Made by a program: the position numbers and the translations under genes
Shown: positions 11,170-47,800 of the stretch, one piece after another
How positions within the stretch are numbered: the first letter of the stretch is position 1
Layout: each line of letters opens with the position of its first letter
NCBI GenBank assembly: GCA_964526065.1
Contig: CAZGID010000001.1
Coordinates: forward strand, 1 to 47,800
Reading direction: 5' to 3'
From: an uncultured bacterium
GTDB taxonomy: Bacteria > Omnitrophota > Omnitrophia > Omnitrophales > Aquincolibacteriaceae
Length of the DNA stretch: 47,800 nucleotides
The notes under the pieces: model-generated
Seen by the model: the letters and a program-made list of their open reading frames with translations, nothing else
Told to the model about the DNA's origin: nothing
Databases searched by the model: none

Positions 11170-11230
11170 ACCGGCTTCTCCTCTCGGTTTTACGGGCCTT
11201 CAGCCGTACCAGCCCGTAAATGCTTATTTT

Positions 11231-11277: not shown

Positions 11278-11462
11278 TTAGATGATAAATCGGCCTTGCT
11301 GAAATATGACTTTAACCATTTTTTCGTTGGAATTTCGAGCGAGCTTTGTGATTTGGGACCTTGGGGCCGCCATCCCGGCTCTCGCTGCCTCCCTTGAACC
11401 GGTACCGGAAGGTACCGGTGATTTCCAGCGATGGATTTGTTCAGTCGACCGTCTTTAGAGAC

Positions 11463-11500
11463 AAAAAAGGTTCCACCCTTACAGGTGAAACCTTTTTATT
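11463..11500. terminator. Bidirectional rho-independent terminator-like hairpin
   Basis: AAAAAA-GGTTCCACC-cttaca-GGTGAAACC-TTTTTATTT: a 9-bp stem with one mismatch, flanked by an A-run and a T-run, so it reads as a terminator on either strand. It is the only such structure between mnmE (stop at 11755) and nrdJ. Confidence 0.55.
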
Positions 11501-11754
11501 TACTTCTGACTGAAAAATCCGGTAACAAAATCGGCTTAAGCGGGATACGGCACTTCTTAACTGAACGGGAAACAGAATTAATCATTCGGGGTAATCCAGA
11601 AGCTCTTTAACCTTATTTTTATATCGGCTGTTTCTCGACAAGAATTCGTTTCCAACTTAAGCGTCGGGTATTTTACTAAACATTGAACCGCTGTCAAACT
11701 CAAAAATGAAAAAGATGAAAAATAAATTTAAATTTTTTGTTGCAAAAACTTTTT

Positions 11755-13137
11755 TTATTTCCCGATACAAAATTCGGAAAAAATTACATCCAGCAAATCT
11801 TCCGAATACACCTCTCCGATCAATTCTTTCAGTGCTTCCAGCGCCGCACGCACTTCAAAAGCAATCAATTCCAGTGACGCTTTTTCACCAAAAGCTTGTT
11901 GTCCCCGCCGCAGGGAAGCAACGGCCGTTTGTAACGCATGACGATGACGAAGCCGTGTGATCTGTTCCCCTTCCGCTGCAGAATCTCCGTCAAAAATATT
12001 CCGCACGATTTCTTTTTCGAGAAGAGAAATGCCTTCGCGTGAAAAAACAGAAATAGAAATAAACTTTTCATCGACGCCGGACATCTGACGCAATGCTTCC
12101 GTGCTTGTTTTAACCGGAAGATCCGATTTAGTCATCACCGTGATCATTTTTTTCTTTGCCGTCTGAATCGCTTCAAACGTTTTCCGGTCTTCATCATCCA
12201 GCGGCGCAGAACCGTCGATCAAAAACAGGCAAAGATCCGCCTCATCCAGTGCCTGGCGCGTCCGCTCGACCCCCATCTGGTCCAGGGGATTGGAAAAGCG
12301 GCCGGAGAAACCCGCCGTATCGGTTAAACGGATCAGGATACCGTCGATTTCAATCCCTTCTTCCAAATGATCCCGCGTCGTTCCCGGATACGGGGATACC
12401 AGCGCACGGTCCCGCTCGAGCAGGGCATTGAACAAAGAGGATTTACCCACGTTGGGTTTCCCGGCAATGATCACTTTCGCGCCTTCACGCAAAAGCCGTG
12501 TGCGGGAGAAACCCGCCAGCAGCGTTTCCATCTCAGAAAGCACGCCGGATAAAAGCTGCGACAACCCGGCGTCCGTATACACCTCAAGATCTTCTTCCGG
12601 AAAATCCAGATAGGCTTCGAGGTGCGCGTAAAATCGCATCAACCGGTTTTTCATATCACCGATTCGCTGTGAAAGTGCGCCCTTTAACTGACGAACGGCC
12701 ATTTCCTGAGAGCGCCGGCTGCGGCTTTGAATCAAATCCAGCACCGCTTCGGCCTGCATCAAATCCATTTTACCGTTCAGAAAAGCACGCTTGGTAAATT
12801 CACCCGGCTCCGCCGGGCGCGCTCCGGCTTCAAATAAAAGAGAGAGGATTCGCTGAAGGACCCCCTGCCCGCCATGCCCGCTGATTTCGATTGTATCTTC
12901 ACCGGTAAAAGAATGGGGCGCACGAAAGACGGCGGCCAGGATGTCGTCCACCAGTTGTCCGTTCTCCTGCACCGTTCCATAATGAATCGTGTGCGACGCA
13001 AACTCCGATAAAAGGCCTTTGGAAAACCGCAGGACCTTCGCGGCCACCGCAAACGCTTCCGATCCACTGACCCGGATCACCCCCAGACCGCCTTCTCCCG
13101 GCGGTGTCGCAATCGCCGCAATGGTTTCTTCCATCAT
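11755..13137 (-). CDS. mnmE: tRNA uridine-5-carboxymethylaminomethyl modification GTPase
   Basis: 460 aa. G-domain motifs GKPNVGKSS, DTAG, TKSD and the diagnostic C-terminal FCIGK. ATGA overlap with folC. Confidence 0.93.
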   Translation of the reverse strand: MMEETIAAIATPPGEGGLGVIRVSGSEAFAVAAKVLRFSKGLLSEFASHTIHYGTVQENGQLVDDILAAVFRAPHSFTGEDTIEISGHGGQGVLQRILSLLFEAGARPAEPGEFTKRAFLNGKMDLMQAEAVLDLIQSRSRRSQEMAVRQLKGALSQRIGDMKNRLMRFYAHLEAYLDFPEEDLEVYTDAGLSQLLSGVLSEMETLLAGFSRTRLLREGAKVIIAGKPNVGKSSLFNALLERDRALVSPYPGTTRDHLEEGIEIDGILIRLTDTAGFSGRFSNPLDQMGVERTRQALDEADLCLFLIDGSAPLDDEDRKTFEAIQTAKKKMITVMTKSDLPVKTSTEALRQMSGVDEKFISISVFSREGISLLEKEIVRNIFDGDSAAEGEQITRLRHRHALQTAVASLRRGQQAFGEKASLELIAFEVRAALEALKELIGEVYSEDLLDVIFSEFCIGK

Positions 13138-18259: not shown

Positions 18260-19198
18260 TTATTCCGCGTCCTTGAGGTAGGTCAGAAAATCACTGTCGG
18301 TGGAAATCACAAGCCGGCTGCCTGCCAACAGCCGCGGATAACGTTCCACCGTGTTGAGGAAAGCAAAAAAAGCGGGGTCTTTGGAATAAGCCTCGCCGTA
18401 GATACGCGTCGCCTCGGCATCCGCTTCGCCACGAAGCGTCTGAACCTTACGGTATGCTTCCGATTGAATCCGGTCCAGTTCTTTATCCTTTTGACCCAGA
18501 ATTTCGGCACGCAATCCCTGACCCTCGGAACGCAAAAATTCTGCGGCGCGCTTTCTTTCAGAAATCATCCGCTCAAAAACCTTCTTTTGAACCGACTGGA
18601 TATAATTGACGCGCTTGATCCGCAAATCGATCATTTCGATGCCATATTCAGAGAGAATTTTCCGCGCGGACTCCAGAATCATATGAGTGATCTGATCCCG
18701 GCCAACCTCAATCCGCTCATAATTACTTTCACCGGTGATATCTTCCTCATCGGTGGGCTTGGCTTCCAGAATCTGGTTGGTCGTGCGCACCATGTCGACC
18801 AATCGGTGCCGGGTAATATAGTTGCGTGTAATACCATCCATAATGTCATCCAGACGACTTTGCGCGTTCGTTTCCGTGTGCATCGTTTGCAGAAATTTCA
18901 GGGGATCATTGATCCGCCAGCGCCCGGTCACATCGACCCAGATAAATTTCTTATCGCGCGTGGGCACTTCCGAAGGATAACCGTCCCATTCCAGAATCCG
19001 GTTGTCAAAAACGTGCGTTTCCTGAATGAATGGCACTTTCCAGTGAAGCCCGGGATTATGAATGGGTTCGCCGACCGGATCGCCAAACTGGGTGATGACG
19101 ACCTGCTCGGTTTCATCCACAATAAAGGCGCTATTGAGAATTAAAATGCCGGCAATTGAAATAATGATGAGGGAAAGAGCGAGAATCGGCTGTCTCAT
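18260..19198 (-). CDS. hflC: SPFH/band-7 protease modulator HflC
   Basis: 312 aa. N-terminal TM helix and an SPFH domain (FIVDETEQVVITQFG...PGLHWKVPFI). ATGA overlap with hflK. Confidence 0.88.
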   Translation of the reverse strand: MRQPILALSLIIISIAGILILNSAFIVDETEQVVITQFGDPVGEPIHNPGLHWKVPFIQETHVFDNRILEWDGYPSEVPTRDKKFIWVDVTGRWRINDPLKFLQTMHTETNAQSRLDDIMDGITRNYITRHRLVDMVRTTNQILEAKPTDEEDITGESNYERIEVGRDQITHMILESARKILSEYGIEMIDLRIKRVNYIQSVQKKVFERMISERKRAAEFLRSEGQGLRAEILGQKDKELDRIQSEAYRKVQTLRGEADAEATRIYGEAYSKDPAFFAFLNTVERYPRLLAGSRLVISTDSDFLTYLKDAE

Positions 19199-20229
19199 GC
19201 TTCCTGCGCTCCTTTTTCGGCATTTAATTGCAGCAAGGGCAAAATGCCTTTCTGGCTTTCATCAATAATCAACTTGTCCTGAAGCTGCGGCAACGTGGCA
19301 TCCAGAGCTTCCAGATAAAGCCGCTTTTTTGTTACTTCTGGCGCCTGACGATAGGCTTCCCAGGAAAGCAGGAAACGATCGGCATCCCCCTGCGCCTGAT
19401 TCACACGCCGCAGCGCATAACCTTCCGCTTCGCGGATCTGCTGCTCGGCCTGACCCAGTGCGCGCGGAATAATGCGGTTGTATTCTTCCCAGGCCTGATT
19501 GACGAGCTTCTCTTTTTCCTGGCGGGCTTCATTGACTTCATTAAAAGAAGGCTTCACTTCATCCGGCGGGTTCACATCCTGAAGAATCACATTCCGGATT
19601 TCGATGCCCGAGTTGTAACCATCCAGCACCTGCTGAAGCATGGCCTCGGCTTCCAGCTGAATTTCTTCGCGGCCGGCTGTCAATATCTGGTTGATATTGT
19701 GGTCGCCCACGACCAGGCGCATAATCGCTTCCGACATATTGCGCAGTGTTTCGCGCGGATTGCGGATCTGGAAGGCAAACTTCACCGGATCTTTAACCCG
19801 ATACTGCACAATCCACTCGACTACCGCGGTGTTCAAATCACCGGTCAGCATCTGGGATTCGACCAGCAAGGGGTCGTTGTTGGCGGGCTGACGCAAACGG
19901 GAAACGCGGGCGGTTTCATCGTCCCGTCCCTGAAAAATGGAACGCACGCCGGCCGCCACCGTACGAAAACCAAATTCTTCCTTATAAACGTAGGTCGTTT
20001 TGATCTTGCGCACCGTTTCAATTCCAAAAGGAAGTTTCATTTGAAGCCCGGGACCCGTCGTGCGCACATAAGCGCCAAAGCGCTGAACCAGCCCGACTTC
20101 GTCCGGTCCCACCTGGTAAAAAAGAGAGCCGACTGCCGTCAATCCGAGAACTAAAATGACGAGCGGAATCATCCACGGGCCGAAACGAAGCGGCGGAATC
20201 CGCGAATCCTGGGGGAAATTAACTTCCAT
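19195..20229 (-). CDS. hflK: SPFH/band-7 protease modulator HflK
   Basis: 344 aa. TM helix and SPFH domain (VGPDEVGLVQRFG...PGLQMKLPFGIE). Coiled-coil C-terminus. Precedes hflC as in the canonical hflKC pair. Confidence 0.88.
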   Translation of the reverse strand: MEVNFPQDSRIPPLRFGPWMIPLVILVLGLTAVGSLFYQVGPDEVGLVQRFGAYVRTTGPGLQMKLPFGIETVRKIKTTYVYKEEFGFRTVAAGVRSIFQGRDDETARVSRLRQPANNDPLLVESQMLTGDLNTAVVEWIVQYRVKDPVKFAFQIRNPRETLRNMSEAIMRLVVGDHNINQILTAGREEIQLEAEAMLQQVLDGYNSGIEIRNVILQDVNPPDEVKPSFNEVNEARQEKEKLVNQAWEEYNRIIPRALGQAEQQIREAEGYALRRVNQAQGDADRFLLSWEAYRQAPEVTKKRLYLEALDATLPQLQDKLIIDESQKGILPLLQLNAEKGAQEA

Positions 20230-22560: not shown

Positions 22561-23667
22561 ATGGGAAAAATCAAAATCGCCATTGCCGGTGTTGGAAACT
22601 GCGCCGCATCCCTTATTCAGGGAATTGAATATTATCGTGCCAGTGTCAACGGCAATAAGAAAAAAGAACATCTGGGACTCATGAATTATGACATGGGAGG
22701 GTATTTCCCGGAAGACATCGAAGTGGTCGCCGCATTTGATATCGACAATCGCAAAGTCGGCCAGCGTTTTGATGCCGCATTGAATGCCAAACCCAATTGC
22801 GTCCTGCCCCTTTTCACCAATATCCCCAAAAGCAAGGTTCAGGTTCAGATGGGTCCGGTTCTGGACGGCTTTGCTGATCATATGCGGGATTACCCGGAAG
22901 AACGCACTTTTATCCCCTCAAAAGCGAAGCCGGTCAAAGTGGAAAAAGTGCTCAAAGACACCGGCGCGGAAATTCTGATTAACTACCTGCCGGTCGGTTC
23001 CCAGAAGGGTACGGAATATTACGCCGAAGCCTGTTTGAAAGCGGGCGTCAGTTTTATTAACTGCATGCCGGTTTTTATCGTTTCAAATCCGGAATGGGCG
23101 AAACGCTTCCAGGACAAGCGTATTCCCTGCATCGGCGACGACATCAAGGCCCAGATCGGTGCCACCATCGTTCACCGCACGCTGGCGAAGCTGTTCTCGG
23201 ACCGCGGCGTTAAAATTGACCGCACGTATCAGTTGAACACGGGCGGCAACACGGATTTCCTCAACATGCTCAACCGGTCGCGTCTGGCGTCGAAGAAAAT
23301 TTCGAAGACGGCGGCGGTACAGAGCCAGTTGATCGAACCGCTGGCAGAAGAGAACATCCACATCGGTCCTTCGGACTATGTTCCCTGGCAGAATGATAAT
23401 AAGGTCTGTTATCTGCGCATGGAAGGCCGCGGCTTTGCGGGATTCCCGATGAATCTGGAATTGCGTCTTTCGGTCGAGGATTCGCCCAACAGTGCCGGCT
23501 GCGGCATTGATGCCATTCGCGCCTGCCGGATTGCCCGCGACCGCAAGATCGGCGGTCCGCTGATTTCCATTTCGGCCTACACGATGAAGCATCCGCCGAA
23601 ACAGATTCCGGACACCGAAGCCCGCGACCTGGTAAAGAAATTTGTTCAGGGAACCTGCCCCCGGTAA
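22561..23667 (+). CDS. ino1: myo-Inositol-3-phosphate synthase (Ino1 type)
   Basis: 368 aa. The N-terminus KIAIAGVGNCAASLIQGIEYY closely resembles the actinobacterial Ino1 Rossmann motif (VGNCASSLVQGVEYY). Size and layout fit the bacterial/archaeal MIPS family. Confidence 0.85.
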   Translation: MGKIKIAIAGVGNCAASLIQGIEYYRASVNGNKKKEHLGLMNYDMGGYFPEDIEVVAAFDIDNRKVGQRFDAALNAKPNCVLPLFTNIPKSKVQVQMGPVLDGFADHMRDYPEERTFIPSKAKPVKVEKVLKDTGAEILINYLPVGSQKGTEYYAEACLKAGVSFINCMPVFIVSNPEWAKRFQDKRIPCIGDDIKAQIGATIVHRTLAKLFSDRGVKIDRTYQLNTGGNTDFLNMLNRSRLASKKISKTAAVQSQLIEPLAEENIHIGPSDYVPWQNDNKVCYLRMEGRGFAGFPMNLELRLSVEDSPNSAGCGIDAIRACRIARDRKIGGPLISISAYTMKHPPKQIPDTEARDLVKKFVQGTCPR

Positions 23668-23672
23668 AAACC

Positions 23673-24281
23673 ATGCTGCGTAAAGCGGTTTATCCAAAGA
23701 TCGAAGCGACCATTAACGCGGCCGCTCGTTTTCTGGATAGCAAAGGCCTCACCCCGAATCAGCTGACCCTGGGCGGCCTCGCCTTAAACTTCATCACCGG
23801 TCTGGTTTTTGCCAACGGGCTTTTCTTTCTCGGCGGGCTGCTGATGCTGCTGGCCGGCATTGGAGACATGCTGGACGGCCCGTTGGCGCGCGTGACGGGA
23901 CGTGCGTCACGCTTCGGCGCTTTTCTTGACTCCACGGTCGACCGGTACTCTGATTTTTTTCTTTTCTCAGGAATTGCGCTGTTCTATGCCAAAAGCGGTC
24001 TGGGCGGCGCCTTTCTCCTGGTTATGGCCATTTTGATGGGCTCTTTTGTCACCAGTTACGCCAAGGCACGAGCTGAAAATCTGATTCCTGCCTGTGGCGT
24101 GGGAATCTTTGAAAGAACAGAACGCATTCTGGTTCTGGCGGTGGGCACCCTTATTACGCCTTTGCTTCCGCTGGCCCTCTGGGTGCTCGCGATCGGCACC
24201 AATGCCACGGCCATTCACCGGATCGTTTATACCCGCAAATTCCTTTCCGACAACGCCGCCTCGTTTGACAAACAGCCCTGA
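23673..24281 (+). CDS. CDP-alcohol phosphatidyltransferase, probable phosphatidylinositol-phosphate synthase
   Basis: 202 aa, polytopic. Exact CDP-OH motif D-G-x2-A-R-x8-G-x3-D-x3-D in DGPLARVTGRASRFGAFLDSTVD. It starts 5 nt after the ino1 stop. Substrate assignment is by gene context only. Confidence 0.75.
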   Translation: MLRKAVYPKIEATINAAARFLDSKGLTPNQLTLGGLALNFITGLVFANGLFFLGGLLMLLAGIGDMLDGPLARVTGRASRFGAFLDSTVDRYSDFFLFSGIALFYAKSGLGGAFLLVMAILMGSFVTSYAKARAENLIPACGVGIFERTERILVLAVGTLITPLLPLALWVLAIGTNATAIHRIVYTRKFLSDNAASFDKQP

Positions 24282-36344: not shown

Positions 36345-37280
36345 TCAGGCGTTTTGCAGTTTTAATTTAGCGCAGTTTTCTCGGACATGTTCCGCCGAAG
36401 CTTCCAACGCTTCCTTTTCTTCCGGCGTCAAATCCAGTTCCACGACTTCGGCCACACCCTGCTTGCCGATCCGGGCCGGAACGCCGCAGTACACATCCCG
36501 CAGACCGTACTGCCCTTCCAGATAGACGCAGGAAGGAATGACTTCATGACGGTCTTCGATAATGGAACGCACCATGCGCGTAACCGAAGCGGAAGGCGCA
36601 TAAAAGGCACTTCCGGTCTTCAAATACTTCACAATTTCCGCTCCGCCGTCCCGCGTGCGCTGGTTAATGGCTTCGATCTTGTCCTGGGGCAGCAGCTCCG
36701 AAACCGGCGTGCCTTTTACCGTCGTATATCTCGGCACGGGAACCATCTGATCGCCGTGGCCGCCAAGCACCATCGCGTGCACATCCCGCGGCGCACACTG
36801 CAGTTCTTCGGCAATAAAGTAAGCACAGCGGGCTGAATCCAGTTCACCGGCCATTCCGATCACGCGCGTATGTTTAAAACCTGAACGCTTCCAGGCCAGA
36901 TACGTCATGACGTCAAGCGGATTGGTCACGATGAGAAGAATCGCTTCCGGAGAATACCGCACGCACTGATCCACGATTCCGGAAATAATTTCCGTATTTT
37001 TCATTAACAGATCATCGCGGCTCATGCCGGGCTTGCGTGCCAGGCCGGCCGTAATCACAACCACTTCGGAACCGGCCGTGTCCGCATAATCATTGGTGCC
37101 TTTAATGGAAGTCGTGAAACCCTCGATCGGCGCTGATTCCATCATATCCAGCGCCTTCCCCTGCGGCAGGCCTTCGACAATATCAATCAACACCACATCG
37201 GCAATTTCTTTTTCTACAATCCGCTGAGCCGTGGTGGCTCCAACAAATCCCGCCCCAACAACCGTCACCTTCGGTTTCAT
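36345..37280 (-). CDS. mdh: Malate dehydrogenase (LDH-like family)
   Basis: 311 aa. VVGAGFVG, the substrate-specificity Arg in [11 protein letters not shown], and the catalytic LGGHGD. Confidence 0.92.
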
Positions 37281-38380
37281 TTTGCACTCCCTGCCAGCTT
37301 TTTCATTTTTTCGATAATCGCCTGGCCCATTTCGCGAGTCCCGACGATATTGGGATCATCCCGGTTTTCTTTCATGTCATAGGTAACCGACTTGCCTTCG
37401 CGGATGACTTCCGCCACAGCCGTCTCCAGCCGGTCCGCCGCTTCGGTTTCATTCAAATGCCGCAGCATGAGAACGCCGGAAAGAATCATGGCCGTCGGGT
37501 TGACCTTATTCTGTCCCTTGTATTTCGGCGCCGAACCATGCGTCGCTTCAAAAAGCGCCCCGTTGGTGCCGATATTGGCACCCGGCGCTACGCCGAGCCC
37601 GCCGATCAATCCCGCCGCAAGGTCGGAAACAATGTCGCCGTACAAATTGGGTAGCACCAGCACATCGTATTTTTCCGGCCACTGCACCAGCTGCATGCAC
37701 ATGTTGTCGACAATGCGGTCCTCGAATTCGATATCCGAATATTTCTTGGCCACTTCGCGCGCGACTTCCAGAAAAAGGCCATCGGAAAACTTCATGATAT
37801 TGGCCTTGTGCACTGCCGTGACTTTTTTACGACCGTACTTGCGGGCATAATCAAAAGCAAACCGCACAATGCGCTCGGTACCAAAAACCGAAATGGGCTT
37901 AATGCTGACGCCGGAATCATCCCGGATTTTGCGGTCGGAACGCTCATTGATGTAACCGATCAAATCTTTAACTTCAGGCGTTCCCTTTTTGAACTCAATC
38001 CCCGCGTAAAGATCTTCCGTGTTTTCACGGACGATGACCAAATCAATGTCTTTATAAGGCGTCCGGACGCCGGGATACGTTTTGCAGGGGCGGACACAGG
38101 CGTATAAATCCAGTTCCTTGCGGAGGGCCACATTGACCGAACGAAAACCGGTTCCGACCGGGGTGGTAATCGGGGCTTTAATCGCAATCGAATTTTTGCG
38201 GATCGAAGCCAGCACGCGGTCCGGCAGCGGGGTGCCTTCTTTTTCCATAATATCGATGCCGGCCGACTGGATATCCCATTGAATATCCAGCCCGGTTGCG
38301 TCGATGCAGGCTTTGGTCACTTCCGCCAGTTCCGGGCCCACGCCGTCTCCGGGGATCAATGTAATCGTATATTTACCCAT
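37277..38380 (-). CDS. icd: Isocitrate dehydrogenase (isocitrate/isopropylmalate dehydrogenase family)
   Basis: 367 aa. [20 protein letters not shown] closely parallels the IDH substrate-binding motif SLNVALRQELDLYICLRP. Also [13 protein letters not shown] gene context. Cofactor specificity is not determinable by eye. Confidence 0.85.
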
Positions 38381-38463: not shown

Positions 38464-39276
38464 ATGAAGGGATTATTGTATATGAATCAGGACCCAATTG
38501 AAAAGACTCTCTTTGAAGCCCTTGAAAAGGCCGGAAACCTGCTGCGCGAGGCGCTGCCCCGCCGGGCCGGTTTTGAGCGCAAGAGCGAACTGAGCCTGGT
38601 GACCGAAACCGACCGCCAGGCCGAAAAAGTGATCATTGAAACCATATTCCGTTCCTTCCCCAATCATGCCATTCTGGCCGAGGAATCGCTGGGCCAGGGA
38701 AATTCTCCCAAACGCTGGATCATTGATCCGCTCGACGGCACGACGAACTTTGCCCACACCTATCCGGTTGCCTGCGTGTCGATCGCCTATGAGGAGAACG
38801 GCGTGCTGGAATATGGCGGTGTTTTTGATCCGTTCCGCCAGGAGCTTTTCTATGGCCGGCGCGGCAAGGGCGCCTTTCTCAACGGGCATCCGCTCCGAGT
38901 CTCGGAAAACAGCCGGCTGGCGGACTCGCTTCTCGCCACCGGATTTCCCTATGACCGCAAAAAGAACATCGATTCCTATGTCGGCATCCTGCGGGATTTC
39001 CTCATGCACATCCATGGCGTCCGCCGCACCGGGTCGGCTGCAACGGATATCTGTTATGTGGCCTGCGGCCGTTTCGACGGCTATTGGGAAGCCAAATTGA
39101 ACCCCTGGGACGTGGCCGCCGCAGCCTTGATATTAATGGAAGCCGGCGGCCATCTTACGGATTATGCCGGCGGAGCGTTTTCAGTGGATGCGCGCCAGAC
39201 GGTGGCCTCAAACGGAAAAATTCATGCGGAGATGCTGGAAGTCCTGAAACCGCACCGGAAGGTCGGCCTGGATTAA
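38464..39276 (+). CDS. suhB: Inositol monophosphatase family protein
   Basis: About 264-270 aa. Motifs LAEES, WIIDPLDGTTNF, WDVAAA. The start is ATG 38464 or 38482. It is the only plus-strand gene within about 22 kb of minus-strand genes. Confidence 0.88.
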   Translation: MKGLLYMNQDPIEKTLFEALEKAGNLLREALPRRAGFERKSELSLVTETDRQAEKVIIETIFRSFPNHAILAEESLGQGNSPKRWIIDPLDGTTNFAHTYPVACVSIAYEENGVLEYGGVFDPFRQELFYGRRGKGAFLNGHPLRVSENSRLADSLLATGFPYDRKKNIDSYVGILRDFLMHIHGVRRTGSAATDICYVACGRFDGYWEAKLNPWDVAAAALILMEAGGHLTDYAGGAFSVDARQTVASNGKIHAEMLEVLKPHRKVGLD

Positions 39277-40061
39277 GAGGTCTGAAGCGACTGCAGGAAC
39301 TGAACCGGCTTTTCCCAGAAATCCTCTCCCGCTGCATACGGAAGATCATTATGCCCGCCGCCCGGAATGGAAAAGAAACCTTTCGGCTCCGGCGCCAGTT
39401 CAAAAAGCTTTTCGCCCATCGCATAAGCGCAGGTTTCATCCTGCGTGCCGTGAATGAAATAAACCGGCGCTTTTACGGCACTGATATATTCAATATTGGG
39501 AAATCGAAAATCTCCGAGCATTTGATCGGCGAGAAAAGACGGAATGGCCGCATAGTGCAGCCCCGCCAGATCGGCAAAGGAAGTAAACGGCGCCTCGAGC
39601 AGAACCGCGGCGACACGCCGCTCCGCCGCCAGGCGGATCGCAGGATATGTTCCGAGCGATTCGCCGTATACAAATAGACGCTCGGGCGGCTGCTGCTTCT
39701 TCTCCGTCAGCCAGAGGTAAGCAGCTTCGGCATCGCGCAAAATATCCTGACCCGACTGAAGGCTTCCCTCGCTACGGCCGTAACCCCGGTAATCGAGAAG
39801 AAAAACCGAAAATCCGCGGCGCACCCAGCCGGCCGCTTTTTCCAGACGCCCCGAAATATTGCCGGCATTTCCGTGGAAAAACAGCAAGGCGCCTTGCGGC
39901 TTCTCCGCCTCAAACCACCAGCCGTGAATTTTGACGCCGTCGACCGTCTTCAAAAAGACGTCTTCGGCTTGAAGCCCGTAGCTCTCCGGCTTCTCATAGT
40001 ACGTCTTATCAGGAAAGAAAATCATGGAAGTGATCATGAGATTAAATATCCAGCGCAGCAT
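39273..40061 (-). CDS. Alpha/beta hydrolase with N-terminal membrane anchor (BEM46/ABHD13-like)
   Basis: 262 aa. Hydrophobic N-terminus WIFNLMITSMIFF, oxyanion FFHGNAGN, nucleophile elbow YGESLG, and late HG/GGGHND. It lies 29 nt downstream of the giant ORF. Confidence 0.8.
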   Translation of the reverse strand: MLRWIFNLMITSMIFFPDKTYYEKPESYGLQAEDVFLKTVDGVKIHGWWFEAEKPQGALLFFHGNAGNISGRLEKAAGWVRRGFSVFLLDYRGYGRSEGSLQSGQDILRDAEAAYLWLTEKKQQPPERLFVYGESLGTYPAIRLAAERRVAAVLLEAPFTSFADLAGLHYAAIPSFLADQMLGDFRFPNIEYISAVKAPVYFIHGTQDETCAYAMGEKLFELAPEPKGFFSIPGGGHNDLPYAAGEDFWEKPVQFLQSLQTS

Positions 40062-40090
40062 AATGGATGCACCAGTTTAACATAAAGCGG

Positions 40091-43000
40091 TTAGGCGGAC
40101 CGCAGGAAATGCTGGCGCATTTTCTCGGCGGAAGCCAGCAAAACGCCGAGAATTTCCGACGGGACCTTGGAATCATCATAATAGTAGTGCTGATCGCCGA
40201 TCAGAAAACGCTGCAAAAGCTGGTCGTAAAGTTTCTGAGAAAGCCGGGCCGCCGACCACAGCAGCGGATACTCCTCGGCATAGCGGTTGTTCCCCGAGCT
40301 GACGAGATTGTGTTGAATCGTCTTCGCATGCTGCATGGCACCTTCATACTGGGCGCGGGAATTCCATTGCCGCGGATAGACATACACCATCCGGTTGAGC
40401 ACTTCCGTAATCGATTCCCGTCCCGCCATCCCGGCCATCCGGGACGCGGCGTTGGCCAGCAGGCTTCTGGCGCGCGCGGCCGATTCCGGGACAATCAGTT
40501 GAACCCGGTCCTCGCCCACCGTTTCAGCGACTTCTTTCTCGATCACGCCCGCTTGTGTCTGCAGGGCCTGCGCCTCACTGCGCAATTGTACCGCCGAAGC
40601 GGTCCGCTCAAAATCGGGCAGCCAGACCACCAGCAGATTCAGATTTTCTTCCGATTCGAGAATCGAAACCAGACTGTCCACACGCGGCTGTTCATTCACC
40701 ACCCAGACCACGTCGGCGGCCTGATTTTCCGAAAATTCAATCCCGGCCGCCTGAAGTTCCCGGTTCTGCACTTCCAGAACATTCCGGATTTCCGGATCGT
40801 GCCAGGCCGGCAAATACGCCTGAAAGATTTCCGCCGCAAACGCCTCTTCGGCAATCAGTTGTTCAAAACGCCGCAGCATCGCTTCCACCTGAACGATTCC
40901 CGACTCTTCGACCGCGTCGATTAATTCCCGCACCGCAAACTCAGGCGGACTGCGCCGCGGCTCGGCCAGCAGATAAGTGACCATCCGGCGGCCGATGCGG
41001 GCCAAGTCCGGTTCTTCTTTTGCCTCTACACGCGCAAGTCCGTCATCGCGCGCTTCGGGACGCTGCGCCAGTTCGGCAATTTTGCGCCGGGCTTCTCCAA
41101 GCAACCACGGGTGCGGCCCGGCAGTAGCGCCCGGCCGGATGGGCGTCTCGGTTGTCAAGTCGCGGTAAGAATCCAACTCGAGTTCGGTGGCTAACCCATC
41201 ATCAAGAATATAGGACAACCACTTAATTTTGTTTTGCCGATCATCTGATTTCCAGTCTTCCTGATCATTCAAACCCACGGCGAGATCGGCTTCTTCAACG
41301 TAGGCCGGCCGGTGGAAAAGCATAAGAAGATCCGAGGTCAGCCCCTGTTCCTTCAAAAGCGGCCGCAGGATTTTGTTCGCCCGGCCCCGCGTATTCACAT
41401 CCAGAAACACAATGTGACGCAAACCAGCTGCCACATACCCTTCTTGGCGAAGATAACGAAGAACCTGCTCCTTGGCTTCCGGCGATGCGTGCGGCTCCCC
41501 ATTCTCAAAAGTCAGTCCCAATCCCGTTTGAATAGCACGTGAAAAAAGAAACGGCTTCCAATGAACGCCCAGCTTTTTCAATTCAGGCCGCACATAATCC
41601 CCCAGGTGATCGGCACCGCTGCGCAACGGCACAAGGGCAACCTGATCCGGAGATGCTCCCGATGCCTGCAAAAGCCCTTCCACATGTTCGCGGACCATCT
41701 TGCGGAAATCGATCAGCATTTCCGTGATTTCCGAGTCTTCAAACAAAATGCGTAAAAATGTCTGCAAGGCCGTTCGCGCCGCTTTCTTTTGATCCGCATA
41801 GGCTGCCTCTCCTGTTTCCGCGGCATTCGCCAGCCATTTCAAAATCAAAACTGCTTGCTGCGGCCGCAGGCCGGCTAGTGTCTGCAAACTCTGTTCCAGC
41901 TCCGCTTCCTTCTGATTCAGCGCCGCCTGCTGGATGCGGTTAAATAAAGTTTCTGATTCACGATGGTAGGCTTTGAGCCCGTCTTCAAGTTCCAACCGGG
42001 AAAGTGAGGCAATTTCATTCACGTGATAAAAGACCACACGCCGATCGCCCAGCGCTCCGTAAACTTCCGGCCGTTGAAAAAATTGCCGGATGGCGCTATA
42101 GTCCCACGGACCATCCCGCGGTTCCGTGCCGGCGTGCGCTTCCAGAAGGCGAATTGCATTTTCAGTCAACGCACGGCTGGCATCATCCAGATCGGAAGTC
42201 CAGTAAAACGGCATTCCGCGCTCTTGAAGGAATTCGCGGGACCGTGCTTCGGAGCGGTCCAGAATTTTTTCGAGTCGGCGGCGCACTTCTTCCGGATTTT
42301 CATCCAGTGCCAGAATTTCGCTTTCCATCACATCCCCCCGGAAACCCGCCACAACAACCCGGCTCCCTTCGCCCCGCACATTGAGATGTTCGCCCGGAAA
42401 CCGGCGGCGGATCACGTCATGAAGCTGCTCAGCGATCAATTCGGCGGTCGTCCACTGAATTGTTTCTTCAAAATTTCCTTCGGGCGTCCGGATAGTAAAA
42501 GAAAGAGTTTTAAGCGTCTGCCGCTGGACTTCCTGCCCGGAGATCCTGTCAAAGCGGTTGCCCGCCGGCCGGTCGTCCGGATCGATCTTCAGATACTGCT
42601 GCTCATAGGTCTCAAACGAAATACTTTCCCAAACTGCCAGCACGCGCAGCCAGCTTTCCAGCTTTTTCTTAACCGCCGGCGCCTGACCGGGCGTATCGCG
42701 CAGCGTCTGACGATAAATTTCTTCCAGCGGGCGGATATAAAACCGCCAGAAAAGACCTTCCGGAGATTTTGAAAATTCGGCGCCCGGAATGCCTGCGATT
42801 TTGACAACGGCGCGAAGCGTATCCAGTTGGGCATAGCTGCGGGGCAAAGCCAGCCCGTGTTTCTGCCAGGTGGCATCGATCATTTCCTGAATGAAAGCAA
42901 GCATGGGCTGAAGCAGTTCGTACGGGCTACCGCGATCCACCAGGGAACGCAAATTCTGTAAATAAGACAAAACCAGCTGGCCCGTTTGAATCACGAGCAC

Positions 43001-46000
43001 GGGATCATCCGAAAGGTAAGATTCCCGCAGCGCCGTGCGTATGCTCTCGGGAATACCCGTGCGGGGATCTATGCCGGTGTTCATCAGAACCGGCAGCGCC
43101 GAAATCGCCATATGGTGCCGGCTTCGCAGTAATTGCTGAAAGGCCTCAACACCTTCCGGAAGGGCAAGCCGTTGATAAAATTGAGCAGCTGCGGGGCGGA
43201 TAAAGGAACGCATTTCTGGAGCGCGATGCACGGAAAAATTAACAAAATCCGTGAATTCTTCCATACCTTCCATTTTAGAAAAAATGGTATTCATCAAATT
43301 CTCCACCGCATTAGGCTGTAAAGAAGCCCCGGATTTCAGGACGGGCTCAATGGCCAGAATCAAACTTTTGCGGGCCTCTCCGGATATCGCCGCCATTTCT
43401 TCCAGCTGTTTGAAAAACCCCGCATCGCCTCGCAGCACCGCCCCCTCAACCAGCGGGCGCAAGCGCGAGACCTCAGAAATTGCTTTCCAGCGCGCTGTAT
43501 CGTATTGAAGAAAACGGTCCAAACCAAAATTTTTAAGTGCCGTTTCGAATGCATCCTGCCGGCTTCCGAATTTGCGCCGCGCGGTATCCAGGATATAAAC
43601 CTGAATAGCACCGAGCGCCACCCGGAAAGGAACGGGATAGTCCTGATCCGCCATCACCTGCTCCATAACCGCCATTGATTTTAGAGACTCCGAGGCGGTT
43701 TCAAATCCCATGCGGCCCGATTCACGCCGGTACATCGGCTGTGCCGCCACCATGACATCGAAAGGATAATCTCCTGCCACCAGCATTTCGCCGATAATGT
43801 GCAGGAACAATCGGAGACTGTCGCGATTCGGTGCCCTCTCAATATAACGGATGATATTTCCTAACCCGTGTTCGAGCTGGCGGTCCCGGTCTTCGGGCGT
43901 CAACGCGGAAGAGGCCTTCTTTAACATATCGCGCGTTAGAATCTCGATGTCCGCGTAGGCTTCCGGCACGGGCTGCCATAGCGGCGTATTGGCATATAAG
44001 CTCGAAACATACTCGGCAAATTCGATCTCATCCACCGCGGAACCGCCGGACGGCTGTTTTTTACGAGCTTCCGGCCGGCCCAGCGCGATGCGTTCTGGCA
44101 TATCGCCGGCCGCCATCAAGCGAACATCGAGCTGTTTCCTGTCATAGTAGCGGTCTTCGCCGGGATCCAGGTAAAAATCCAGCGTATGGCCGTAATGATT
44201 CCCAAGATTCTGACGAACCAGTTGATGCGCCGCTTTAAGACGCTGCTCCGCCTCCGGCACACGCTGCTGATTGACCAGCTCCGGCACAGGCGCCGTCAGA
44301 TTGCCAAATTCCAGATGAAAATTCCTCTTCGCAGGCATCGCGGCCTGCGGAGTGCGGAATAAATCCTCCTGCACAATCCTCATCATTCTGAAATAGTCAC
44401 GCATGGCTCGGGTACTCCGGATATTTTCCATAATATCCCGGAAGGACTCGCCCGCCTGATCCCGCTGCATATATGCCACGATCTGTCTTTGCATCGTTTC
44501 AATTTGCACAATGCCCTGCTGGGACAGGCCGGGAAAGCCCGAAAATAACTCCTGCCATTTGGCAAAACGTGTCTTTGTTTCCAAAGAAGGTGGAAGGTTC
44601 TCGACAAACACATCGTTATCTTCGGGCGCCAGATACGAAACAACAAATTCGGCATCCTTAAAATTCAGAGCCCTGTCTCGCAACGTGATTTCGCCATAAT
44701 TTGAAATCTGGACATGATGAAGCAGCCGGGCTTCAATATCCGAACGCAGCAGATTCTGCCGAACGGCTGGATTCAGATCAAAAGCAGGGCCGAATTCAAA
44801 GGCATAAACTCTTTTGATTTTCTTCCCCTGCTCATCGAGTTCGACCGCATCCAGCATCGTATGGTAATCTCCGGCAGGATGGCTGACGCGCACAACCACA
44901 TTGAACCGCAGATTCCGTTTCTGCCGGGCCGCGGGTTGTGACATTTCCTCCGTCAAGAAATTAAGCTGATGCATGGCTTTGTAACCTTCTTTCATCGTTT
45001 GAACGGCTTGATGACGCAAGAAGGCCATATAAAACGATGTGTAGAGTGGAGAGTATTTTTTCTTTCCATCGGCATTGACAGTCACCGAGAGATCTTTGAC
45101 GTCAAGAAAAGGCAGATAATCCAGCCGTCCGGGCGTTTGTAAAATCCCAAGGAGTTCTTCAAAGGATTCCGGAAGGCGGTGATAGATTCTCTCAAACTCA
45201 GCGGTGGCGGCGCTCACCTCATCCGCCAGCCGCCTCTTAATATGCGGTTCGGAAAGCCGGCGGGTTTCCTCGATCACAATGGCCGAATGCTTTTTTCCAA
45301 GGTCTGTTAACTGAACGCTTTCCTGAGAATCAACAACCGGGATAATTTCACGCTCAAAAATCGAAGTCCCTCCTGGTGTTTCCCGGCCCAGGATTTCATC
45401 GGTCTTTTTTCCATCGAATTTATGGATGACGGCCAGAGTCTGAAGCAAACGTTCATAACGGCGGTAATTGACGTTCCGATAACTTCCCTGTTCCGCTCCT
45501 TCGCGCAGCAATTCGACGCCAATATCCCGCAGCATAATATGAAAATCAGGGATGAGGCCGGTCAATGCGTCCGTATATTTTTGAAGGAACATTTCATAGT
45601 GCTCCACATTGAAACCATGATGCCGGATCAGTGTTCGCACCAGATTTTTGACTTTAGCGGCCGCATAAGGACGGACGACTCGTTTTATACGGGACTTGGA
45701 TTTGCGATTCTTGGAGTATTCCGGATAGTAATAATACATCCGCATCCATTCCATAATCAGCACCGGATCCTCCAGACGCACCGCTTCTTCAACCGCCTTA
45801 TTCAGATTCTCATCCCCGCCGCTTTCCGGCATATCCCCGAAACTCAGGACCATCGCCATGGCCTGTTTGTTCCAATAATTCTTTTTAAATGCCCTGTGTA
45901 CCACTTTTCTTTGCCCGGAATCTGCCAGCAGCTGATTTAACTTTATTGGGATCCCTTTGAGAGAAAGATCAAAATCCCGTCCTCGCGACGCCGCTTCCAG

Positions 46001-47773
46001 ACGCCTTGCCATGGTCAAAATTTCCTGAACGTCCTGAATTTCATTAATCAGAAAATCCAAAAGCACTTGCGCATTTGGCAGGCGGCCGGCCCCGGATTTG
46101 GTCCAATTGGCCGCAAAATCAGTAAGCACATGGATCATCTCGCGCCGGTATTCCGCATCTTCCCGGATTCTCTTCCGGCTTTCGGCATCGGTGATCTGCC
46201 CGTCTTGAATGGTTCGGGCCAGCCGGAAGAGTTCGCCTCCGTCCGGATAGCGGCGCTGCGCATCCCCGAGGCTTTCCAGAAATCCGAATCTCGGATTTGC
46301 TTCCGAAACTTTCCAGGAAAGCAAGGCCTCTTCAAGCGGCGTTCCCGCTTCTGTAAAAACCTTCTCCTGTTTTTCAAAGGCATCCGTTAACTCCGAATAT
46401 GCATAGTACTTTTCATCCGGAGAAGCGCCGGTATCTTCAAGAATCTGAAGAAACCGCTGCAAATTCAACATGCTGTAGGCCCGCTGTTGATCGCCTGCGA
46501 TGTCCTCCGTTTTGGCAGCTTCACGCCGGACATCGCTGAGACGCACAAAAAGTTCGTTGCTTGCCTGCAGGGTTTCCTCATCGAAATTTTGTGTGACTCT
46601 TTCGGAAGTCAGGATGGCTGCAGCAAAATGAAACCGATTGACCGCGTTATTGTCCCGGACAAACTCAATCAGACTTTCTTCTGCCTTGGTGCGTTCAGAA
46701 CCCGTCAATCGCAAGAAACGCTGCAGCCCCTCGCGAATCCGATAGCGTTCCTCTACCGTCATTTTCCAAACCAAAACATTCGATGAATCCCGGACCTTTT
46801 CCCACAAACGCCGGTTGAATTCTTTATCGGAAAGCTTTGGCAGCTCGGGTTCTTCTTCGATTTCTTCTGTCTCTTTTTCCGCATCCCGGCGGAAGCGCAG
46901 CTCCTGAATCGCCACACCGCTCAATTCACTCAACCGCTTCAAACTGCTCTCCAGGGCCGCTTCATCCACTTCTTTGACGGCTTCATCTTGAGCCAGGCTT
47001 ACAAAAATGGCCGCATACACGCGCACCGCCTGCGGCAGACGGCCAAGCGCCGTGATTAATGCCTCGCGCGGGGGATCGGCCGTTTCCAGCCGTGCGGCTT
47101 CGCTTTTTAATGCGGTAATGATCTGTTCCCAGCCGCCGTTCCAGACCGCCAGTTTTTCATCGCGGCTCATTTCATGAATGCTCCGCGCCTCCGAACGAAC
47201 CGTAGGTATTTCAACGCGTGCTTCCGGCCGGCCTCCATCCTGGCTCTCTTCCCAAGACCTGAACTTCAACTCCCGAAGATCAAAATAGAATCCCTTAAAA
47301 AGGCGCGCAGCGGTATCCCGGGCGGAGCTAACCATGCGAGTCTGCGTCTCCTCAAGAATTTCCGTGTCAATCAGTTCCGCCTGCAAAGCTTCTAAACGAA
47401 GCCGTGACTCACCGGCTTGTGCCGTTCCGCCGAGAAAAGGGTCCAGAATGTCCGAATAAAGACGGCCCGTCAGACTCTCAAGGAAGGCATGAAGCTCTTC
47501 ATAAGTGGCCCGGGTGCCCATATTCTGATTTTGATCGTATACGCGGTGCGAAAGGCGGTCTACCAAGTTGAAAGCCAAAGCCGTGCGCAAAACTGCATCC
47601 AGCACCTCCAGCTTTTCGCGATCGCGTTCCAAAACATCCGGGTCTTCGGAATTTGCAACAGCGGAAAATTCTCCTTTTATCTGCTGAAGAACCCCATGCA
47701 AGGAAGCTTTTCGAACCGCAGGCAAATCGGTTAAAGATCTTATCGATTCTTCATGCGCCGTGGTAATCATCAT
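40091..47773 (-). CDS. Giant hypothetical protein, at least 2,560 aa, no assignable domain
   Basis: A single uninterrupted 7,683-nt ORF with a TAA stop at 40091-40093. The first ATG is at 47773, but the frame stays open to the window end (47800) and no SD precedes that ATG. The translation has no P-loop, Rossmann, metalloprotease, helicase, NRPS/PKS, RTX or YD motifs, no TM segment and no Cys. Confidence 0.8.
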   Translation of the reverse strand: MMITTAHEESIRSLTDLPAVRKASLHGVLQQIKGEFSAVANSEDPDVLERDREKLEVLDAVLRTALAFNLVDRLSHRVYDQNQNMGTRATYEELHAFLESLTGRLYSDILDPFLGGTAQAGESRLRLEALQAELIDTEILEETQTRMVSSARDTAARLFKGFYFDLRELKFRSWEESQDGGRPEARVEIPTVRSEARSIHEMSRDEKLAVWNGGWEQIITALKSEAARLETADPPREALITALGRLPQAVRVYAAIFVSLAQDEAVKEVDEAALESSLKRLSELSGVAIQELRFRRDAEKETEEIEEEPELPKLSDKEFNRRLWEKVRDSSNVLVWKMTVEERYRIREGLQRFLRLTGSERTKAEESLIEFVRDNNAVNRFHFAAAILTSERVTQNFDEETLQASNELFVRLSDVRREAAKTEDIAGDQQRAYSMLNLQRFLQILEDTGASPDEKYYAYSELTDAFEKQEKVFTEAGTPLEEALLSWKVSEANPRFGFLESLGDAQRRYPDGGELFRLARTIQDGQITDAESRKRIREDAEYRREMIHVLTDFAANWTKSGAGRLPNAQVLLDFLINEIQDVQEILTMARRLEAASRGRDFDLSLKGIPIKLNQLLADSGQRKVVHRAFKKNYWNKQAMAMVLSFGDMPESGGDENLNKAVEEAVRLEDPVLIMEWMRMYYYYPEYSKNRKSKSRIKRVVRPYAAAKVKNLVRTLIRHHGFNVEHYEMFLQKYTDALTGLIPDFHIMLRDIGVELLREGAEQGSYRNVNYRRYERLLQTLAVIHKFDGKKTDEILGRETPGGTSIFEREIIPVVDSQESVQLTDLGKKHSAIVIEETRRLSEPHIKRRLADEVSAATAEFERIYHRLPESFEELLGILQTPGRLDYLPFLDVKDLSVTVNADGKKKYSPLYTSFYMAFLRHQAVQTMKEGYKAMHQLNFLTEEMSQPAARQKRNLRFNVVVRVSHPAGDYHTMLDAVELDEQGKKIKRVYAFEFGPAFDLNPAVRQNLLRSDIEARLLHHVQISNYGEITLRDRALNFKDAEFVVSYLAPEDNDVFVENLPPSLETKTRFAKWQELFSGFPGLSQQGIVQIETMQRQIVAYMQRDQAGESFRDIMENIRSTRAMRDYFRMMRIVQEDLFRTPQAAMPAKRNFHLEFGNLTAPVPELVNQQRVPEAEQRLKAAHQLVRQNLGNHYGHTLDFYLDPGEDRYYDRKQLDVRLMAAGDMPERIALGRPEARKKQPSGGSAVDEIEFAEYVSSLYANTPLWQPVPEAYADIEILTRDMLKKASSALTPEDRDRQLEHGLGNIIRYIERAPNRDSLRLFLHIIGEMLVAGDYPFDVMVAAQPMYRRESGRMGFETASESLKSMAVMEQVMADQDYPVPFRVALGAIQVYILDTARRKFGSRQDAFETALKNFGLDRFLQYDTARWKAISEVSRLRPLVEGAVLRGDAGFFKQLEEMAAISGEARKSLILAIEPVLKSGASLQPNAVENLMNTIFSKMEGMEEFTDFVNFSVHRAPEMRSFIRPAAAQFYQRLALPEGVEAFQQLLRSRHHMAISALPVLMNTGIDPRTGIPESIRTALRESYLSDDPVLVIQTGQLVLSYLQNLRSLVDRGSPYELLQPMLAFIQEMIDATWQKHGLALPRSYAQLDTLRAVVKIAGIPGAEFSKSPEGLFWRFYIRPLEEIYRQTLRDTPGQAPAVKKKLESWLRVLAVWESISFETYEQQYLKIDPDDRPAGNRFDRISGQEVQRQTLKTLSFTIRTPEGNFEETIQWTTAELIAEQLHDVIRRRFPGEHLNVRGEGSRVVVAGFRGDVMESEILALDENPEEVRRRLEKILDRSEARSREFLQERGMPFYWTSDLDDASRALTENAIRLLEAHAGTEPRDGPWDYSAIRQFFQRPEVYGALGDRRVVFYHVNEIASLSRLELEDGLKAYHRESETLFNRIQQAALNQKEAELEQSLQTLAGLRPQQAVLILKWLANAAETGEAAYADQKKAARTALQTFLRILFEDSEITEMLIDFRKMVREHVEGLLQASGASPDQVALVPLRSGADHLGDYVRPELKKLGVHWKPFLFSRAIQTGLGLTFENGEPHASPEAKEQVLRYLRQEGYVAAGLRHIVFLDVNTRGRANKILRPLLKEQGLTSDLLMLFHRPAYVEEADLAVGLNDQEDWKSDDRQNKIKWLSYILDDGLATELELDSYRDLTTETPIRPGATAGPHPWLLGEARRKIAELAQRPEARDDGLARVEAKEEPDLARIGRRMVTYLLAEPRRSPPEFAVRELIDAVEESGIVQVEAMLRRFEQLIAEEAFAAEIFQAYLPAWHDPEIRNVLEVQNRELQAAGIEFSENQAADVVWVVNEQPRVDSLVSILESEENLNLLVVWLPDFERTASAVQLRSEAQALQTQAGVIEKEVAETVGEDRVQLIVPESAARARSLLANAASRMAGMAGRESITEVLNRMVYVYPRQWNSRAQYEGAMQHAKTIQHNLVSSGNNRYAEEYPLLWSAARLSQKLYDQLLQRFLIGDQHYYYDDSKVPSEILGVLLASAEKMRQHFLRSA

Positions 47774-47800
47774 GTTCGGCCGGGGTAAAGGTTCGTAAAA

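Follow-up and report, generated by a model that had tools for sequence, protein, structure and literature searches.

Introduction

Omnitrophota are widespread, uncultured, mostly ultra-small bacteria that are thought to live on other cells, and no part of their genomes is more conspicuous, or less well understood, than the giant genes. We analyzed one very long open reading frame (ORF), hereafter the giant ORF, which lies on the minus strand at the edge of a 47,800-nucleotide (nt) stretch of an Omnitrophota contig (CAZGID010000001.1, positions 1 to 47,800; referred to as the window). Giant ORFs of this phylum are described, in sections of the papers cited, as common, poorly conserved and domain-poor (PMC10066038; bioRxiv 10.1101/2023.11.21.568195; bioRxiv 10.64898/2026.06.07.730766), and parts of one report propose that they serve in attachment or predation, acting at the surface or on other cells (PMC10066038).

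Where these sections delimit the class by size, they use a gene of >20 kb (Seymour et al. 2023, PMC10066038) or a protein of >=10,000 amino acids (aa) (Nielsen & Lui 2026, bioRxiv 10.64898/2026.06.07.730766). The same parts of the literature give transmembrane helices or signal peptides for 94 % of catalogued long Omnitrophota proteins, and HEAT as the commonest domain in published giants that are much larger than ours. In the sections cited, West-Roberts et al. 2023 suspect that Omnitrophota giants are cleaved and state that the cleavage points are unknown (bioRxiv 10.1101/2023.11.21.568195).

We put a probability of roughly 0.6 on the reading that the giant ORF is the C-terminal part of a far longer gene (~19-20 kb; ~6,000-7,000 residues, by analogy with relatives), that this gene belongs to an uncharacterised giant modular family of an uncultured Omnitrophota bacterium, and that its product is exported. 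The family has three testable regularities: near-total avoidance of cysteine, a fixed C-terminal cap, and short conserved joints that delimit modules.

The gene is most likely an incomplete copy, within the window, of a member of the already noticed and poorly understood class of giant Omnitrophota ORFs. It resembles that class in its Omnitrophota genome, great length, scarcity or absence of annotated domains, weak conservation and singleton clusters; complete relatives carry a signal peptide, and modules are common to otherwise unrelated giants. The initial annotation had seen here the most plausible seat of undescribed biology, which in the strong sense is not supported, as the gene belongs to a described phenomenon. 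By size, 7.7 kb are seen in the window, and the genes of its relatives P0021 (19.3 kb) and P0007 (19.9 kb) are just under 20 kb, their products well below 10,000 aa. Unlike the Archaeovorin and Dockerin-type proteins (>30,000 aa in the sections cited), the window family is much shorter, and the visible part lacks transmembrane helices and dockerin, HEAT, glycosyltransferase, C39/S8 peptidase and SecA-like domains. Assignment to the Archaeovorin or Dockerin-type giants of West-Roberts et al. was rejected on the absence of any Pfam match at E <= 1e-3 and of transmembrane helices. Within the sections and term searches of the Omnitrophota giant-ORF literature covered, R-x-E-x-R joints, an SA/AA-ending cap and cysteine avoidance are not mentioned, and this specific family has not been described there; a full-text literature search gave no paper linking Omnitrophota and polyprotein.

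A giant coding sequence outside known families

Counted from its first ATG (47773), the giant ORF spans 40091..47773 and encodes 2,560 aa. The 27 nt between this ATG and the window end hold no in-frame stop, which, with the coordinates, confirms the report of a single minus-strand ORF that reaches the window edge. GC at the three codon positions (0.64/0.39/0.57) follows the same pattern as in the other 28 window genes; because of this match, and because 7.7 kb are free of stops, we regard the ORF as a real coding sequence and not a chance ORF. G+C is ~54 % across the stretch, and composition is even along the gene.

Searches of the whole protein against Pfam, NCBIfam, PADLOC and PHROGs gave no significant family, and PDB sequences gave no match. 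Specifically, Pfam had no match at E <= 1e-3; signature families of the RTX, NRPS, PKS, Rhs-YD, helicase and P-loop types were absent in Pfam and NCBIfam; and no anti-phage defence or phage family was found with PADLOC and PHROGs, a scan of viral contigs being empty as well. When PDB sequences were searched with profiles of modules A and B (described below), only spurious designed helical proteins were returned. The 19-residue Kyte-Doolittle mean peaks at 1.22, which bears out the lack of any transmembrane helix, and no tandem repeats were found in the DNA, nor internal repeats by BLAST. The impression of an alpha-helical protein holds for most of the length and fails for module A, which includes a Rossmann-like alpha/beta domain. 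Similarly, the description "no recognisable motif" is right for known motif libraries, but it overlooked the complete lack of cysteine and five copies of R[PS]EAR.

An exhaustive search reveals a family of modular giants

Nothing was returned by word-indexed homologue searches with the full-length ORF, alignment A1 and alignment A3, nor by scanning genome, metagenome and viral contigs for back-translated patterns of the single giant protein. The word-indexed search was blind even to exact segments of ten looked-up proteins in its described 15-billion-protein collection; its empty result is therefore not evidence for orphan status. An exhaustive phmmer (HMMER) search of 1.84 billion protein representatives with aa 1361-2560 gave 30 homologues, 11 of them at E <= 1e-30, and the label "orphan" was thus mistaken. 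An apparent orphan gene can be placed in a family once every sequence is scored, and not just word-indexed candidates. Residues 327-1785 also align to the closest relatives, weakly outside module M.

Mapping the whole giant ORF onto its homologues yielded three shared blocks, modules M, A and B (Table 1). Module B is carried by P0007 (6,649 aa), P0021 (6,442 aa), P0006 and the fragments P0005, P0017, P0027, P0029 and P0030. A metagenome scan with the module-B profile added two members, the L090 ORF (at least 3,435 aa on a 1.07-Mb contig, open at the fetched edge) and the L091 ORF (at least 1,420 aa). We define P0007, P0021, P0006 and the L090 and L091 ORFs as the R-x-E-x-R or module-B family. 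Three relatives (P0027, P0001 and P0024) are named Candidatus Omnitrophota by NCBI; these names, and a window isocitrate dehydrogenase 77-82 % identical to those of Omnitrophota with like gene order, place the giant gene in an Omnitrophota genome. All clusters looked up are singletons at 90 % identity, and the precomputed Pfam record is empty for both P0007 and P0021. While the isocitrate dehydrogenase (IDH) of the window is 81 % identical to that of L082, the locus of P0021, the giants retain ~25-30 % identity in the blocks that can still be aligned. These sequence comparisons place the giant gene in a rare family of modular Omnitrophota giants that diverges fast. Module content varies even between close positional counterparts (module A is in the window ORF and not in P0021); modules have therefore been gained, lost or exchanged.

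The C-terminal cap, module B, matches P0005 (E = 2e-45), P0006 (2e-42), P0007 (2e-39) and P0021 (1e-24), and in its alignment (A2) 9/9 members terminate at one column, with SA or AA. Module M is similar to residues 30-388 of P0006 (E = 1e-33), where it occurs once; P0007 and P0021 each contain several copies. A longer stretch, aa 753-1377, matches residues 1358-1974 of the L090 ORF (E = 1.5e-32), and helical unit 2 has a weak colinear similarity to residues 3062-3969 of P0007 (22 % over 959 aa, E = 1e-9) and is helical in a single-sequence model of low confidence. Relatives that come independently from other samples have module M, joint and helical unit in the same colinear order, each with module B at its end.

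Cysteine is absent from all 2,560 aa of the giant ORF (P ~6e-14 at the 1.18 % rate of the window's other proteins). Counts in the relatives are 5/6649 (P0007), 2/6442 (P0021), 0/1475 (P0006), 0/3435 (L090 ORF) and 0/1420 (L091 ORF), corresponding to 0-0.08 % in the module-B family. Several carriers of module A are likewise depleted, for example P0028 with 1/3,720. The near absence of cysteine is family-wide. Avoidance of cysteine often goes with secreted or extracellular proteins. Elsewhere in the window, two adjoining SPFH/Band-7 genes (18260-20229, minus strand; 312 and 344 aa) also encode no cysteine.

The start of the gene probably lies beyond the window

The gene order and orientation of the window recur in L082, which holds P0021, the alpha/beta hydrolase gene (54 % identity), suhB on the other strand (57 %) and IDH (81 %). 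By eye and hydropathy, P0021 has a classical signal peptide at its start, and so does P0007 if an in-frame ATG located 11 codons upstream is taken in place of the called start (MKHQKIISPVLTLSFIFSCLA...). Both proteins then share an N-terminal domain of ~600 aa (..QDAH..PEAQ.. / ..GGFH..) that ends at the first R-x-E-x-R. A signal-peptide-like start is found in most of the longer, apparently 5'-complete relatives. The giant ORF starts as MMITTAHEESIRS... (MMITTAHEES...) with no signal peptide, a joint follows directly on its first 181 residues, and the N-terminal domain is not present in aa 1-2560.

Since the syntenic P0021 has 6,442 aa, and since both complete relatives carry a signal peptide and the N-terminal domain, the real start is probably beyond the window, as the initial annotation had suggested. 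From this sequence comparison it appears highly likely that the gene continues upstream of the window; the missing part probably amounts to ~10-12 kb if the lineage resembles P0021 and P0007. By the architecture of these two relatives, aa 1-181 would be the tail of a preceding unit that starts outside the window. The lack of a Shine-Dalgarno site before the first ATG, which had been cited as a sign of truncation, was discarded as evidence on the start: only 13/29 window genes have such a site, and the hydrolase gene is among the 16 that do not. A Tiki/TraB-like protease was considered for the N-terminal domain of P0007, P0021 and P0018 and rejected, as it had no Pfam support.

A short motif recurs at module borders

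R[PS]EAR occurs five times in the giant ORF, against an expectation of 0.02 from shuffles and a background of 0.025 per 2,560 aa (613,000 residues in the ORFs of 80 fetched loci from Omnitrophota and other phyla). Every long member of the module-B family has more copies of the relaxed pattern R[PSAT]E[AVLI]R than expected, with observed and expected counts of 5 and 0.15 in the window ORF, 6 and 0.24 in P0007, 4 and 0.15 in P0021, and 2 and 0.03 in P0006. The five copies differ in their codons, only two sharing a 14-nt string; conservation therefore acts at the protein level, and a DNA-level repeat was dismissed.

In the multiple alignment, RPEAR-1233 of the giant ORF occupies the same columns as RAEVR-1835 of the L090 ORF, RSELR-619 of P0006 and RSELR-3404 of P0007, and each of these four joints is followed by a short variable linker and then by a conserved '..ANQNA...LW..S.EER..I' helix. 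The motif stands immediately N-terminal to module B in all members. It also precedes module A in the window ORF and, at the same place, in P0002 (RSEVR), and in the window ORF the copies at 1840 and 2238 lie on either side of module A.

Other carriers of module A have flanking motifs of their own: R.[SL]P[ST][GA] in P0001 (18 copies vs 0.06 expected), D[RSDAK]AM (D.AM) in P0009 (11 vs 0.15 expected; six copies in P0028), and PG[NA][LF]GPGAMN in P0024 (three copies), each flanking the module. Short lineage-specific joints are thus a general trait of modular giants.

From end to end, a complete member has a cleavable-type signal peptide, the conserved ~600-aa N-terminal domain, a series of helical units that have diverged from one another (roughly 600-1,700 aa each), and the conserved ~320-aa C-terminal cap with its SA or AA end. 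At the joints compared, a unit opens with R-x-E-x-R, the short variable linker and the 'LW..S.EER' helix, and the joints would separate independently folding modules. The window copy has in addition acquired module A, a Rossmann-like, enzyme-looking domain that circulates among other multi-module giants, some of which are named Omnitrophota. Because relatives have signal peptides and the family avoids cysteine, the full protein would leave the cytoplasm by the Sec pathway; by analogy with the proposals for other Omnitrophota giants, its site of action would be extracytoplasmic, probably the cell surface or a contact with other cells.

Judging by their sequence and placement, the joints may be candidate cut sites for a lineage-specific protease; they could equally be structural caps or module borders that tolerate exchange. 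We raise, tentatively and as the less likely outcome, a broader proposal: R-x-E-x-R (here and in P0007/P0021), D-x-A-M (P0009/P0028), R-x-S-P-[ST]-G (P0001) and TPGNLGPGAMNIDEP (P0024) would be processing sites of exported bacterial polyproteins, and a co-evolving protease would release separate proteins there, enzyme-like modules such as module A among them. If true, this would be a polyprotein resembling a viral polyprotein or a MARTX toxin, and it would offer a simple rule for cutting giants for structure prediction. Unknown cleavage points are said, in the parts of the literature cited, to block structural analysis, and the joint motifs are concrete candidates for such points.

MARTX toxins and viral polyproteins are very long polypeptides in which unrelated modules lie between conserved ends, with short conserved sequences at the borders and a module repertoire shuffled between lineages. 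The giants share with them, as a functional analogy only, the chain of modules, the conserved ends, the border motifs and the shuffled repertoire. There is no sequence or structural similarity, and cleavage is only a candidate here. In contrast to MARTX toxins, the ORF has no MARTX repeats, cysteine protease domain, type I secretion system genes or C-terminal RTX signal, and no protease was found.

Module A is predicted to be a discrete Rossmann-like domain

More than 20 multi-module proteins, the longest with 7,094 aa, contain module A, and NCBI names two of these Candidatus Omnitrophota. Its conserved motifs are LKWLAN.AE (1978-1986), VPL.[ST]GA..LG (2046-2058), HI.F.D.G..G[ST] (2120-2132), GLN[DE]...W (2167-2174) and LDDG.E (2189-2197). 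Alignment-based AlphaFold was run on aa 1841-2560. Confidence (pLDDT) exceeded 90 for model residues 1-400 (aa 1841-2240) and fell from 92 to 58 at joint 5; in the model, module A is thus a confident, discrete fold whose ends coincide with joint motifs. Module B was poorly predicted because its alignment holds nine sequences, and a single-sequence model of aa 1361-2560 was unusable (pLDDT 38.6).

In the model, module A starts as a bundle of helices and continues as a three-layer alpha/beta/alpha domain, in which VPL.[ST]GA..LG and HI.F.D.G..G[ST] form two strand-Gly-rich-loop-helix elements. Foldseek comparison of the alignment-based model with PDB and BFVD gave nothing at E <= 1e-3. The weak matches were to SIS phosphosugar-binding domains, HGPRT-type phosphoribosyltransferases and RecJ DHH domains; the best phosphoribosyltransferase match, 8tr1_B, had a TM score of 0.48 on the target and a root-mean-square deviation of 3.5 over 144 columns, at E > 1e-2.

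Like type I phosphoribosyltransferases and SIS domains, module A combines a three-layer alpha/beta/alpha arrangement with two strand-Gly-rich-loop-helix elements, and its VPL.[ST]GA..LG resembles the UPRT motif VPILRAGLGM. Unlike type I phosphoribosyltransferases, it has D.G..G[ST] instead of the PRPP-loop [DE][DE]...[ST]G.[ST] or DP...TGGS, and its large N-terminal helical bundle sets it apart from both groups. In hhalign, the expected motif of E. coli Upp was aligned at a probability of 0.4 %, and Pfam gave no Pribosyltran or UPRTase match. Assignment as a phosphoribosyltransferase or UPRT was therefore rejected: the motif likeness is real, and hhalign (0.4 %), Foldseek (E > 1e-2) and Pfam lend it no statistical support. 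Going by loop geometry and conserved polar residues in the model, module A would be a new domain of Rossmann-like type, with a phosphorylated compound as its probable ligand.

A second group of module-A proteins (P0009, P0010, P0020, P0022 and P0028) has shared end pieces of its own: an N-terminal domain after the signal peptide, 'LP.PG.MV.LS.AY.P..IKG..V.P.NP..FDFI.D', and a C-terminal domain, 'GGIDLN ... PVIINI.P'. Visual inspection or the product names of NCBI/IMG point to enzyme-like stretches in the interior of these proteins, kinase, receiver, methyltransferase, HAD and NUDIX among them. Copies of D.AM are spread along the chain, and in P0009 they lie on both sides of module A.

Alternative readings

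Several points weigh against a truncated, exported and possibly processed giant. The truncation is deduced from relatives rather than seen in upstream sequence, and export rests on the relatives' signal peptides, which were judged by eye and hydropathy. At ~25-30 % identity in alignable blocks, the window protein has diverged strongly from P0021, which lacks module A; the two architectures therefore need not be colinear. In the AlphaFold model the motif residues lie at helix ends and not in a long disordered linker, so that the joints could be mere structural caps. The closest family and the window ORF gave no credible protease motif in an HExxH scan, and the ORF and the window as a whole showed neither protease nor adhesin-type domains, nor any secretion-system gene. 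A built-in metalloprotease was rejected on the same scan, HExxH being enriched in other giants (P0018, P0019 and P0015) and absent from the closest family and the window ORF. In a different interpretation, the ORF is a complete cytoplasmic protein of 2,560 aa that starts at ATG 47773, a mostly helical soluble scaffold with one enzyme-like domain whose N-terminal half was lost or split off. The ATG-ATG pair at 47773/47770, the lack of both a signal peptide and a transmembrane stretch, and the fluid architecture of the family, with module A here and not in P0021, all count in its favor, and the missing Shine-Dalgarno site, shared by 16/29 window genes, says nothing against it. We nevertheless consider it quite unlikely: the frame is open to the window edge, aa 1-181 resemble a unit end with its joint rather than an N-terminus, the positional counterpart has 6,442 aa, a signal peptide opens most of the longer relatives that seem complete at the 5' end, and such extreme cysteine avoidance would be unusual in a cytoplasmic protein where other proteins have 1.2 % cysteine. 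It is very improbable that the ORF is an artefact, whether a chimera of the assembly, several genes fused through frameshift errors or a pseudogene in decay. Family members often end at contig ends, and so are hard to assemble, and relatives differ in module content; yet 2,569 stop-free codons at ~54 % GC are impossible by chance, the gene is even in composition throughout, the colinear order closed by module B is kept in relatives that come independently from other samples, and contigs of 45 kb to 1.07 Mb carry uninterrupted relatives of 3,400-6,600 aa.

The suggestion of a two-gene unit with the hydrolase, which could process, acylate, deacylate or release the giant protein, can be weighed in the same way. 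The hydrolase gene, on the same strand after a 29-nt gap, was confirmed (Hydrolase_4, E = 7e-19). The pair is kept in L082, with a 104-nt gap and 54 % identity between the hydrolases, and both genes are missing from five related genomes in which the flanking order is intact: the window IDH is 77-82 % identical to those of Candidatus Omnitrophota metagenome-assembled genomes with the order suhB-IDH-MDH-aconitase, and of the five that keep suhB-IDH-(mdh)-aconitase, none has the giant gene or the hydrolase beside suhB. The hydrolase also matches peptidase-type alpha/beta families (S33, S9, S15) among others, though these Pfam matches are generic for the alpha/beta-hydrolase fold, and joint presence in two locally syntenic genomes can be simple inheritance. 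In five other family members (L084, L086/L087, L089, L090 and L091) the downstream genes are unrelated to the hydrolase, namely an 80-aa ORF followed by a SNF2-type helicase gene; metH; genes for an AAA ATPase and for an ECF sigma factor; and one gene without annotation, which rules out a family-wide partner. A weak terminator-like hairpin (40087-40103, minus strand; 5 pairs, then TTTATGTT) over the stop codon of the giant ORF also speaks against a unit; the number of terminator-like sites in the region is not above that in shuffles. Part of the earlier suggestion thus survives, as a functional link within this clade is possible, and a functional two-gene unit as such seems unlikely. For the C-terminal part of a longer exported giant, the preferred reading, the window alone gives a modest result, an incomplete copy of a poorly known and already noticed kind of gene; the regularity of the joint motifs is the part most worth pursuing.

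Features of the giant ORF and neighboring genes

Table 1. Positions of the giant ORF, its parts and the adjacent genes in the window
Feature	Residues	Position	Strand	Remarks
Giant ORF		40091..47800	-	at least 2,569 codons; stop codon 40091-40093; open at window edge
Helical stretch	1-181	47231..47773	-	before first joint; no signal peptide, no N-cap
Joint motif 1, RPEAR	182-186	47216..47230	-	
Joint motif 2, RSEAR	193-197	47183..47197	-	
Helical unit 1	198-1232	44078..47182	-	resembles repeated units of P0007, P0021, P0006 and L090 ORF
'LW.M[ST].EER' start motif of helical unit 1	333-343	46745-46777	-	
Module M	702-1086	44516..45670	-	best conserved part of helical unit 1
Joint motif 3, RPEAR	1233-1237	44063..44077	-	
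Helical unit 2	1238-1839	42257..44062	-	begins '..YANTPLWQPVPEAY' (aa 1263-1273)
Joint motif 4, RSEAR	1840-1844	42242..42256	-	directly before module A
Module A	1847-2237	41063..42235	-	predicted helical bundle and Rossmann-like alpha/beta/alpha domain
Joint motif 5, RPEAR	2238-2242	41048..41062	-	between modules A and B
Module B	2245-2560	40094..41041	-	C-terminal cap, ending ...HFLRSA*
Alpha/beta hydrolase		39273..40061	-	262 aa; Hydrolase_4, E = 7e-19; 29 nt downstream of giant ORF
suhB-type inositol monophosphatase		38464-39276	+	synteny anchor
Isocitrate dehydrogenase (IDH)		37277-38380	-	synteny anchor

The other window genes are of the housekeeping kind (sdhAB, nrdJ, mnmE, purH, ino1, aconitase, mdh, IDH and suhB), in keeping with the initial annotation. 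In L082, the 9,610 nt upstream of P0021 (1-9610) look like a surface-glycan neighborhood, with genes for a protein kinase of >1,900 aa, PilZ, MBOAT, a CMP-sugar-type cytidylyltransferase, an MptE-like protein (a faint match) and a family-2 glycosyltransferase.

Elsewhere in the window, an 828-aa protein (3036-5522, minus strand) consists almost entirely of HEAT repeats (PF13646, 11 stretches, E = 6e-141). The gene for a CHASE2-GGDEF diguanylate cyclase (6026-7807, minus strand) is closely followed downstream by tRNA-Ser(CGA) (5877-5965, minus strand), the only RNA gene found in the window. The ribonucleotide reductase (7915-11169, minus strand) is of class II, B12-dependent, with 1,084 aa and a TSCPD domain near aa 877-967. 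G+C drops to 0.435 over 11001-12000, compared with ~0.55 elsewhere, around the 585-nt intergenic gap between nrdJ and mnmE (11170-11754), in which Rfam at gathering thresholds found nothing. The myo-inositol-1-phosphate synthase gene ino1 is directly followed by a CDP-alcohol phosphatidyltransferase gene (22561-24281, plus strand), and the suhB-type gene lies 14 kb away; together the three look like a pathway for an inositol lipid or inositol solute in an Omnitrophota genome.

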